Shown here in pieces: positions 14,322-15,498 of a stretch of DNA of 41,053 nucleotides. The notes below the pieces were generated by a model. It searched no databases, had not been told where the DNA came from, and saw nothing but the letters and a program-made list of their open reading frames with translations. The position numbers and the translations under genes were made by a program. The DNA is from a virus (Duplodnaviria > Heunggongvirae > Uroviricota > Caudoviricetes): positions 1 to 41,053 of the IMG/VR virus record IMGVR_UViG_2617270962_000012; one strand, given 5' to 3'. Within the stretch, counting starts at the first letter, position 1, and each line of letters begins with the position of its first letter.

Positions 14322-14342
14322 GCAATAAAATTGTCAAATTAA

Positions 14343-14969
14343 TCAGTTGTCAAATGAATATACGTTAAAGGTATATGTCGACATAATTTCACCAAGTACC
14401 TCAATACATACACTTTTTTTATGAAAATTACTGGGAAATGAACTTAGCTCCTCAAGACATTGCACATAAGTGCTGATATCACTTGCATCACGTTCAAGGA
14501 ATTTCACTTGACCAAAAGAAGGAGTTTTAATCTTGGTTCTTTGCTGGATTATATGGATAAAGTGTGTAGTTGGTGAAACTATTACTCTTGAAATATCGGA
14601 AATGATGTCTTCTTGAACTTGCCGATAAAGTAAATCCTTTGGGTAATGGTGTTTTATCTCGATGGTTGCAACATTGCCATTATGTTCAGACGTTAATATC
14701 GACTGGTTATAAAGTGATATGTCAACAGCGCCGATACCGAGTTTTGGATGCTCACTTAAAGCAGTTAGTGTGCTGATTTGATTGAGTATAACAACTAACT
14801 CATCACGTATTTGTGTTTCATGTTTGCGATTGTAGAAGTAGCCATTCAGTTCATTTAACTTTTTATGCATCCTATCGTGACTAATTGCTTCGATCAGTAA
14901 ATCCTGAATCATACTTTTCTCTAGGTAATCCGAACGGTTGTAAGTGACAGTATTGTGCTGGCATGTCAT
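14343..14969 (-). CDS. hypothetical protein, possible PD-(D/E)xK nuclease (accessory cassette gene 2)
   Basis: AT-rich; opposite strand to flanking late genes; 'GIGAVDISL' ... 'VATIEIKH' has D-x(~20)-ExK spacing. Confidence 0.4.
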   Translation of the reverse strand: MTCQHNTVTYNRSDYLEKSMIQDLLIEAISHDRMHKKLNELNGYFYNRKHETQIRDELVVILNQISTLTALSEHPKLGIGAVDISLYNQSILTSEHNGNVATIEIKHHYPKDLLYRQVQEDIISDISRVIVSPTTHFIHIIQQRTKIKTPSFGQVKFLERDASDISTYVQCLEELSSFPSNFHKKSVCIEVLGEIMSTYTFNVYSFDN

Positions 14970-15012
14970 TAATATGTAAAGGTATTGTGAATGCCAGAAA
15001 GATAACGAAGTA

Positions 15013-15366
15013 TCATCGATAGAAAAACTTTACAGCCCACTCGTAAACAGCTTTGTAAATCGGTTCATGGTAAATACTATCGATACTATTCAGATGTGCG
15101 ATCATCGCCTCCACAGTTGTAGTGGTTGTTTCTAATATTTCGATTATTGCAGGGCGGTCATCATCTTCATCGAAGTATTCGAACAGCAGTACAGGTTTAC
15201 CATGCAATTCAGCATCTGAGACTCTAAGGTTACAACTACCGCTCAACTCAAAGTGAATTTTGTAATTACCTTCTACAGAATGGCCTACGGGGAAAAAGTA
15301 TAGGGTGTCATCTTTGTTCAAAAGCCATTCCCATTCATAACTATTCATTTGTGAACTCCTGTTCAT
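15013..15366 (-). CDS. hypothetical acidic protein (accessory cassette gene 1)
   Basis: 117-aa ORF 43 bp upstream of 14343-14969 on the same strand; Asp/Glu-rich ('FEYFDEDDDRP'). Confidence 0.4.
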   Translation of the reverse strand: MNRSSQMNSYEWEWLLNKDDTLYFFPVGHSVEGNYKIHFELSGSCNLRVSDAELHGKPVLLFEYFDEDDDRPAIIEILETTTTTVEAMIAHLNSIDSIYHEPIYKAVYEWAVKFFYR

Positions 15367-15498
15367 TGAGTTTCAACAACTATCAACTACATCCAGCGAA
15401 GCATAAAAGATCGTTTATGGCAAAACCGGAATGGAGTGCGATTCGATTCTGAGAAGGGTGCCACGTATCGTACGCGAACCATCCAAGAGGATTATGCA

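Follow-up and report, generated by a model that had tools for sequence, protein, structure and literature searches.

Location and general features of the inserted segment

The DNA analysed here (the window; 41,053 nucleotides, the whole of IMG/VR record IMGVR_UViG_2617270962_000012) is an Escherichia coli prophage of the SfV/SfIV/SfI-like kind. Its late genes lie on the plus strand in the order DNA methyltransferase, holin, endolysin, Rz, Rz1, HNH, TerS and TerL. Two minus-strand ORFs, 14343–14969 (208 aa) and 15013–15366 (117 aa), are found inside this late operon; they are called gene B and gene A, respectively. Both lie where the first-pass annotation of the window had placed them, but the starts given there probably do not hold, since internal Met codons are likelier for both genes. 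The features of the region are as follows.

Table 1. Features of the lysis-to-packaging region.
11858–12910, plus strand: DNA methyltransferase, 350 aa, DPPY motif
13327–13803, plus strand: endolysin
13787–14179, plus strand: Rz
14064–14321, plus strand: Rz1-like o-spanin, left edge of the slot (PGAP annotation, identical locus in UPEC_U013)
14291–15498, no strand: variable cargo segment in the Rz1-to-HNH slot, with both morons inside (BLASTN against vB_EcoM-720R4)
14343–14912, minus strand: gene B, predicted 189-aa stand-alone PD-(D/E)xK nuclease (RefSeq WP_000613842.1, phrog_12494)
14652–14825, minus strand: codons of the invariant active-site-type residues of B, namely K30 (14825–14823), E32 (14819–14817), D64 (14723–14721), E85 (14660–14658) and K87 (14654–14652)
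14913–15012, minus strand: leader/spacer of the B module, 100 nt, with a sigma-70-like TTTACA-17-CACAAT at 14980–14952
15013–15348, minus strand: gene A, 111-aa acidic protein (RefSeq WP_001089763.1, phrog_14397)
15349–15498, minus strand: stretch between the start of A and the divergent HNH gene, presumed to hold the A promoter
15499–15849, plus strand: HNH endonuclease of the packaging module, right edge of the slot (PGAP and ORF list)

The limits of the insert were established by BLASTN comparison with phage vB_EcoM-720R4 (L002), in which the site is empty: the alignment breaks off at 14290 and picks up again at 15499, where that phage has just 72 bp between the two points, and the insert is 1208 nt long. 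In phages 689R6 and 118970_sal3, the slot is occupied by other cargo. The GC content is 34–40% across the cassette against 49–59% in the flanks. The entire segment has 37.2% GC and the window 50.4% (z = −2.1), which ranks the segment among the lowest 3.9% of stretches of its length; the dip is not unique, as there are five more low-GC stretches elsewhere in the window. The GC3 values are 31% for gene B and 38% for gene A, against 43–66% for the neighbouring genes. Base composition, GC3 and strand thus all bear out the earlier description of an AT-rich insert antisense to the late operon, and the proposal that it is horizontally acquired moron cargo, here in a variable slot, is supported.

Among 5,426 complete E. 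coli genomes, 80 contain the 1.1-kb segment (in 73 of these, at least 80% of it), and its genes are always annotated there as hypothetical. Rfam, tRNA and repeat scans around the cassette returned nothing relevant.

B, A, a gene for a 75-aa acidic protein and a gene for a 151-aa membrane protein occur in the slot in varying combinations, so the modules that it shuffles are independent. In several prophage backbones of enterobacteria, the junction between Rz and terS is a hotspot at which cargo is shuffled. A well-known occupant of the corresponding position is lambda bor, an antisense moron at the lysis-to-packaging junction downstream of Rz/Rz1. Like morons of the bor type, A and B are AT-rich autonomous cargo, antisense and just downstream of Rz/Rz1; Bor itself, however, has no sequence relationship to either protein. 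Prophage defence hotspots have been described for P2/P4 phages (PMC9122126), whereas the slot studied here lies in SfV-like, other lambdoid or HK97-like backbones. In one sibling E. coli prophage, the other variable slot, which separates Q from the holin gene, holds TIR and caspase genes as an antisense pair.

Gene A and the spacer

The true start of gene A is probably Met7 (15348), because homologues, PHROG profiles and the RefSeq/PGAP model all start there and an AGGAG Shine–Dalgarno motif precedes it. The protein is strongly acidic, as had been noted from its run FEYFDEDDDRP; its pI is 4.56. Searches of Pfam, PADLOC and NCBIfam yielded no family or structure match for A, only a PHROG of unknown function. 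The AF2 model (pLDDT 52) is too poor for a structure search, and the low-confidence prediction is of a beta-rich part followed by two helices. CPR-C4, retrieved by a PDB sequence search at a non-significant E value of 0.08, was rejected as the identity of A, which has no conserved Cys. Conservation of gene A is limited to prophages of enterobacteria, where the Rz1-to-HNH slot is its constant position, and 10 other phage contigs have it in this slot without B. No consensus promoter exceeds the scan threshold in the region upstream of A (15349–15498).

The 100-nt spacer between the two genes contains a promoter-like element that matches the consensus at 9 of 12 positions (promoter scan). No terminator is predicted between A and B; at loci L040 and L044, a separate GC-rich hairpin follows the A stop codon. 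The spacer is also present at the B-only locus L071 and is absent from the A-only loci, which diverge just after the A stop codon. We therefore assign it, with its promoter-like element, to the B module.

Gene B is predicted to encode a PD-(D/E)xK nuclease

The start of gene B is probably Met20 (14912), the internal Met at which homologues, PHROG profiles and RefSeq/PGAP all begin. The 189-aa protein contains the strings GAVD(I)S and ATIEIKH, which together form a D-x20-E-x-K motif. Five residues, K30, E32, D64, E85 and K87, are kept in all 101 relatives that are less than 45% identical to the query, and E54, P56 and D93 are kept in 100 of them; the D64–E85 loop is hypervariable in the same set. 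The D/E/K motif, which had been read from a single sequence, is thus retained in all 101 of these homologues.

The AF2 model of B is confident (pLDDT 83.9, pTM 0.84) and has its elements in the order alpha-beta-beta-beta-alpha-beta of a restriction-endonuclease-like core. Helix alpha1 bears E32, beta2 opens with D64 and beta3 holds E85/K87, so that the core fold, the acidic residue of beta2, the (D/E)xK of beta3 and the Glu of alpha1 are all found where the PD-(D/E)xK superfamily has them. The nuclease core suggested by the first-pass annotation is therefore recovered at exactly the D, E and K residues that it named, and the fold model agrees. The structures nearest to the model are Type II restriction endonucleases (REases) of the EcoRV branch (R.SwaI 5tgq, BglI, MspI, EcoRV, HincII and NlaIV), with which B has no detectable sequence similarity (10–16% identity, no HMM match).

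Curated models recognize B poorly. Searches of Pfam, NCBIfam and PADLOC with the protein gave no curated model at threshold, the sole match being phrog_12494, of unknown function. PDB sequence searches with single-family and deep B profiles returned nothing, and Foldseek found no significant match for the model in PDB or BFVD. The profile searches that had been proposed for the two proteins thus lead only to PHROGs of unknown function; the restriction-enzyme-like fold of B comes from its structure model. The antiphage models of PADLOC-DB 2.0.0 and NCBIfam 20.0 match neither A nor B, in keeping with the earlier remark that neither belongs to a recognized defence family. Single members of the B family do have sub-threshold matches, to HSDR_N (1.4e-4), PDDEXK_4, PDDEXK_9, DpnII-MboI and Tox-REase-7, and further weak ones to SduA (1e-5), two REase_II models and hsdR (0.021). 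All of these are nucleases within the PD-(D/E)xK superfamily. Neither the HMM searches nor the model revealed an extra domain in B, whether a modified-base reader or another sensor. We consider it very likely that B is a nuclease of the PD-(D/E)xK class with a restriction-endonuclease fold.

Distribution and genomic neighbourhoods of the B family

Close homologues of B are found only in Enterobacterales, and a profile search of genome contigs with the close B alignment returned two loci. An exhaustive profile search together with a profile-seeded search extended the family to about 120 relatives of 180–240 aa, mostly from Bacteroidota. By the sequences collected, the B family is an uncurated one of Enterobacterales prophages and Bacteroidota chromosomes. 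There is no mention of the accessions or PHROG identifiers of A or B in the literature searched or in the DefensePredictor supplements.

In Enterobacterales, B is always antisense between Rz and terS or HNH. It occupies this slot in at least five different phage backbones of 34–53% GC and in every case exceeds its phage in AT content. In some of these backbones, the gene comes to within about 35 nt of the terS start. B-only phages have a conserved block upstream of B that was considered as a candidate B promoter; it is actually the divergent terS start with its ribosome-binding site.

Outside Enterobacterales, genomic neighbourhoods were compared at 10 loci.

Table 2. Neighbours of distant B relatives.
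Tamlana (L009): B relative between KwaA/KwaB and hsdM/hsdS
Chryseobacterium (L010): DarT and a Macro-domain protein beside the B relative
Tenuifilum (L011): HEPN_AbiU2 nearby
Flagellimonas (L104/L105): Mrr_cat upstream, prok_STING downstream
L110: Type III-like restriction–modification system and a Schlafen-AlbA_2 protein alongside
L108: WYL regulator nearby
L111: Schlafen-AlbA_2 nearby
L106, L109 and L112: no recognizable defence neighbours

The defence genes beside the Bacteroidota relatives include those of Kiwa, DarTG, AbiU2, Mrr/STING and R-M systems. Clear defence neighbours are present at 5 of these 10 loci, and at 7 of 10 if weaker markers are included; these are raw counts from a small sample, to be read without a background rate. 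Closer to the window, in a prophage clade with B of about 51% identity, a complete Lamassu pair, LmuA and LmuB (E = 3.9e-148 and 7.9e-237, respectively), is found together with B in the slot between the lysis and terminase genes. These neighbourhoods make a defence role for B plausible. Observations that count against it include the 3 of 10 sampled loci that have no recognizable defence neighbours, the existence of frameshifted or truncated copies of B, and a tblastn search of 50,697 GenBank phage records in which neither gene A nor gene B had a match.

Relation of B to methyltransferases

Several features would suit a conventional restriction–modification (R-M) system in which B is the endonuclease and the methyltransferase is encoded elsewhere, at 11858–12910, in the early region (a Dam-like enzyme) or by the host. 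The structures closest to B are Type II REases, the DPPY-motif DNA methyltransferase of the window lies 1.4 kb away, and a sibling prophage has an N6-adenine methyltransferase in its early region. However, only about one-third of the prophages with the identical cassette have the 350-aa methyltransferase at 11858–12910, and 720R4 has this enzyme without any cassette. Missing as it is from about two-thirds of the cassette prophages, it was ruled out as a linked partner. At the Enterobacter, Chryseobacterium, Tenuifilum, Flagellimonas and other loci, there is no methyltransferase within 5–6 kb of B.

There are two exceptions. In Tamlana, the B relative lies 82 nt upstream of hsdM–hsdS, with no hsdR within 5 kb; at L110, the Type III-like system is nearby, on the other strand. 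Because one distant relative is directly upstream of hsdM–hsdS, some members of the family may be true R-M nucleases. For B itself, this seems improbable: unlike Type II REases, it has no linked cognate methyltransferase in most of its contexts. It is found, as Type IV enzymes are, as a solitary nuclease without a cognate methyltransferase.

A service of B to the phage itself is also improbable to our mind, whether through degradation of host DNA, Hjc-like resolution of recombination or replication intermediates, or early counter-defence. Most close relatives of the phage lack B, which is therefore dispensable. The gene is also oriented against the late operon, RusA is already available in sibling prophages, and the Bacteroidota relatives are chromosomal and lie amid defence genes.

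The distribution of A and B does not support a single system

The first-pass annotation took the two genes together for a candidate defence or toxin-immunity system. Co-occurrence was analysed in 37 viral contigs with relatives of A, 54 with relatives of B, and genome loci, each scored for both proteins. The two genes co-occur only at loci where both have 94% identity or more to their copies in the window (about 27 IMG/VR contigs). All 10 diverged A loci (58–74% identity) are without B, and all 24 diverged viral B loci (50–71% identity) are without A. Nor is A found at the Enterobacter, Yersinia and Citrobacter genome loci that have a diverged B.

Losses within the closely related lineage point the same way. 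In L071 and L072, B is intact and 96% identical, and A is missing. L071 retains the last ~35 nt of A (its 3′ end) next to the intact B, which indicates that A was deleted or replaced there while B stayed. The replacement in this lineage is the 151-aa membrane protein, which in L044 adjoins a homologue of A. The converse case is represented by three contigs that keep A and have B cut at residue 38 after a rearrangement. The 75-aa acidic gene lies ahead of B in Enterobacter and ahead of a homologue of A in L047.

Upstream of distant B relatives lie genes that show no relationship either to A or among themselves. A hidden conserved partner was sought among the genes flanking these relatives and rejected: all are unrelated except one protein pair, a 114/115-aa membrane-anchored protein common to the Chryseobacterium and Empedobacter loci.

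These data leave a very small probability to the reading of A and B as a toxin-immunity or toxin-antitoxin/abortive-infection pair, in which the acidic A (pI as given above) would neutralize B or mimic its substrate. The genes are indeed adjacent and co-oriented, no terminator is predicted between them, and they are kept together in the 73 complete E. coli genomes and about 27 IMG/VR contigs. Recent common descent nevertheless explains this pairing, confined as it is to near-identical copies. The constant association expected of a toxin and its antidote is not seen (10 A-only, 24 B-only and 2 A-deleted loci), and the survival of an intact B after deletion of A in L071/L072 is hard to square with A as an essential antidote. 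Nor do the genes make up a tight operon, since the 100-nt spacer with its promoter-like element travels with B and is its own. Elsewhere, the partners of B are unrelated or absent.

The two-gene system has thus to be abandoned. Judged by where its homologues occur, gene A is an independent moron, separate from B, and not the antitoxin or immunity factor of B. The segment is, on the same sequence comparisons, made up of two autonomous morons that happen to adjoin in one E. coli prophage lineage.

PD-(D/E)xK homing endonucleases exist, and the AT-rich B recurs at one intergenic position in at least five phage backbones, at some of them so close to terS; but the idea that it is a selfish free-standing homing endonuclease, cutting empty Rz–terS junctions and spreading by recombinational repair, is most improbable, because the site is not specific to B (the slot also takes unrelated cargo: A, the 75-aa gene, the 151-aa membrane protein, Rha and Lamassu), B is oriented against the late operon, and its distant relatives, far from being confined to mobile or phage contexts, include members of non-phage chromosomal defence islands.

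Possible function of B

We lean towards the view, without pressing it far, that B is a single-gene anti-phage defence nuclease that protects the lysogen. Antisense to the late operon and apparently preceded by its own leader, B would presumably be made in the lysogen, with transcription from that leader. The enzyme would be metal-dependent and would cut incoming or replicating foreign DNA through a centre formed by K30/E32, D64 and E85-x-K87. It would act without a cognate methyltransferase. The host DNA would be spared not by self-methylation but by the way in which phage DNA is recognized: recognition may be modification-dependent (Type IV-like), or it may depend on structure or context, that is, on some feature peculiar to infecting or replicating phage DNA. 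How B tells self from non-self is a guess, as no modified-base reader or sensing domain is visible in it, and for B specifically we hold the Type IV-like mode to be rather unlikely.

In functional terms, B comes nearest to restriction nucleases that stand alone (Type IV-like) or to minimal defence genes consisting of a nuclease only, an analogy that combines similarities and differences. Like Type IV enzymes such as Mrr, it is solitary, has a PD-(D/E)xK core and no cognate methyltransferase, and has relatives that lie in defence islands; one B relative even lies directly downstream of an Mrr_cat gene. Unlike them, it has no recognizable modified-base-binding domain and no match to Mrr_cat, although recognition of modified bases might reside in the core itself. 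The Shedu protein SduA (DUF4263) and the N-terminal nuclease of HsdR (HSDR_N) are also PD-(D/E)xK nucleases, with roles in defence. Single B relatives match their models weakly, whereas the B protein of the window matches neither; moreover, Shedu has an N-terminal sensor domain and HsdR a helicase/translocase, while B is nuclease-only.

A broader proposal is possible, and we put it forward tentatively. B may found a broad family of minimal defence nucleases (about 190 aa, single-domain) that extends from Enterobacterales prophages to the defence islands of Bacteroidota. Its members would tell self from foreign DNA without a methyltransferase, a sensor or a fixed partner, the core itself perhaps reading a modification of phage DNA or an intermediate of replication or injection. 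As part of the same proposal, the lysis-to-terminase junction of lambdoid/HK97-like prophages would be a general defence hotspot like those of P2/P4.

For the cassette, the comparison removes a false lead, in that the acidic neighbour A does not appear from its distribution to be the immunity partner of B. The Rz-to-terS slot, with B, A, Lamassu and other genes, lends itself to the search for further systems. If B does work as a single-gene defence nuclease, it would add an uncurated family of about 120 members to the anti-phage repertoire; these proteins are small enough for easy biochemistry and might provide a tool enzyme. It would also raise the question of how a bare restriction-fold core without a methylase avoids killing its host.

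Variable genes around the cassette

The slot between the lysis genes and the terminase, which holds the cassette of gene A (acidic protein) and gene B (nuclease candidate of predicted PD-(D/E)xK fold), carries further cargo in related prophages.

Other cargo genes at related loci
L005 5692-5910, L100 4677-4910 and L047 4627-4884: acidic protein of 72-77 aa (MGNVKIYAGLVNGDLMPII...)
L071 2113-2568 and L044 5446-5901, strand opposite to A and B: predicted membrane protein of 151 aa
L093 1710-4610, and also L096, divergent from the B homologue: LmuA (Cap4 nuclease) and LmuB

The small acidic protein, which matches no family, is another shuffling moron: its gene is found upstream of B in prophages of Enterobacter and, in L047, upstream of an A homologue. 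The predicted membrane protein, without a match in Pfam or PADLOC, takes the place of gene A in L071 and adjoins the A homologue in L044. In prophages L093 and L096, a complete Lamassu pair shares the slot with a B homologue of the ~51% clade.

Some copies of B are frameshifted or cut short. Frameshifts in the middle of the gene or near its C-terminus (L032/L074, P0024 and H43) suggest occasional decay. In the IMG/VR contigs L021-L023 and L101-L103, A is intact but B breaks off after residue 38, and a second copy of TerS/HNH comes next, which suggests either that two related prophages have recombined or that the join arose in assembly.

Relatives of B with candidate partners

L009 5001-8521 (Tamlana haliotis), same strand: B relative and hsdM-hsdS
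L010 4629-4976 (Chryseobacterium) and L109 4652-4996 (Empedobacter), abutting the B relative upstream: protein of 114/115 aa with a C-terminal hydrophobic helix

In T. haliotis, hsdM-hsdS begins 82 nt downstream of the B relative, and no hsdR is found within 5 kb. The B relative may supply the nuclease for a Type I-like methylase, an arrangement like that of AhdI. The 114/115-aa proteins are 60% identical to each other, and their gene together with the B relative looks like a lineage-specific two-gene form of the B family.

Probable packaged genome end and second cargo site

Window ~15907-15926, between the HNH stop (15849) and terS: putative cos site
Window 11858-12910, directly upstream of the holin gene: DNA methyltransferase of 350 aa with a DPPY motif
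L113 16997-18374 (sibling prophage of E. coli EC21Z-014), antisense, Q-to-holin slot: caspase-family and TIR-domain protein pair

In GenBank, the linear SfV and SfIV records stop at window position ~15907 and the SfI record starts at ~15926, so that the cos site is probably located here. The right end of the packaged genome would then lie 0.4-1.6 kb from the cassette.

The methyltransferase is itself variable cargo, found in only about one-third of the sibling prophages. The Q-to-holin slot contains this gene in the window, whereas in L113 it contains the antisense pair, matched in PADLOC to a caspase (1.2e-19) and a ThsB-like protein (2e-12); the slot is therefore a second defence-cargo hotspot of the same phage lineage.
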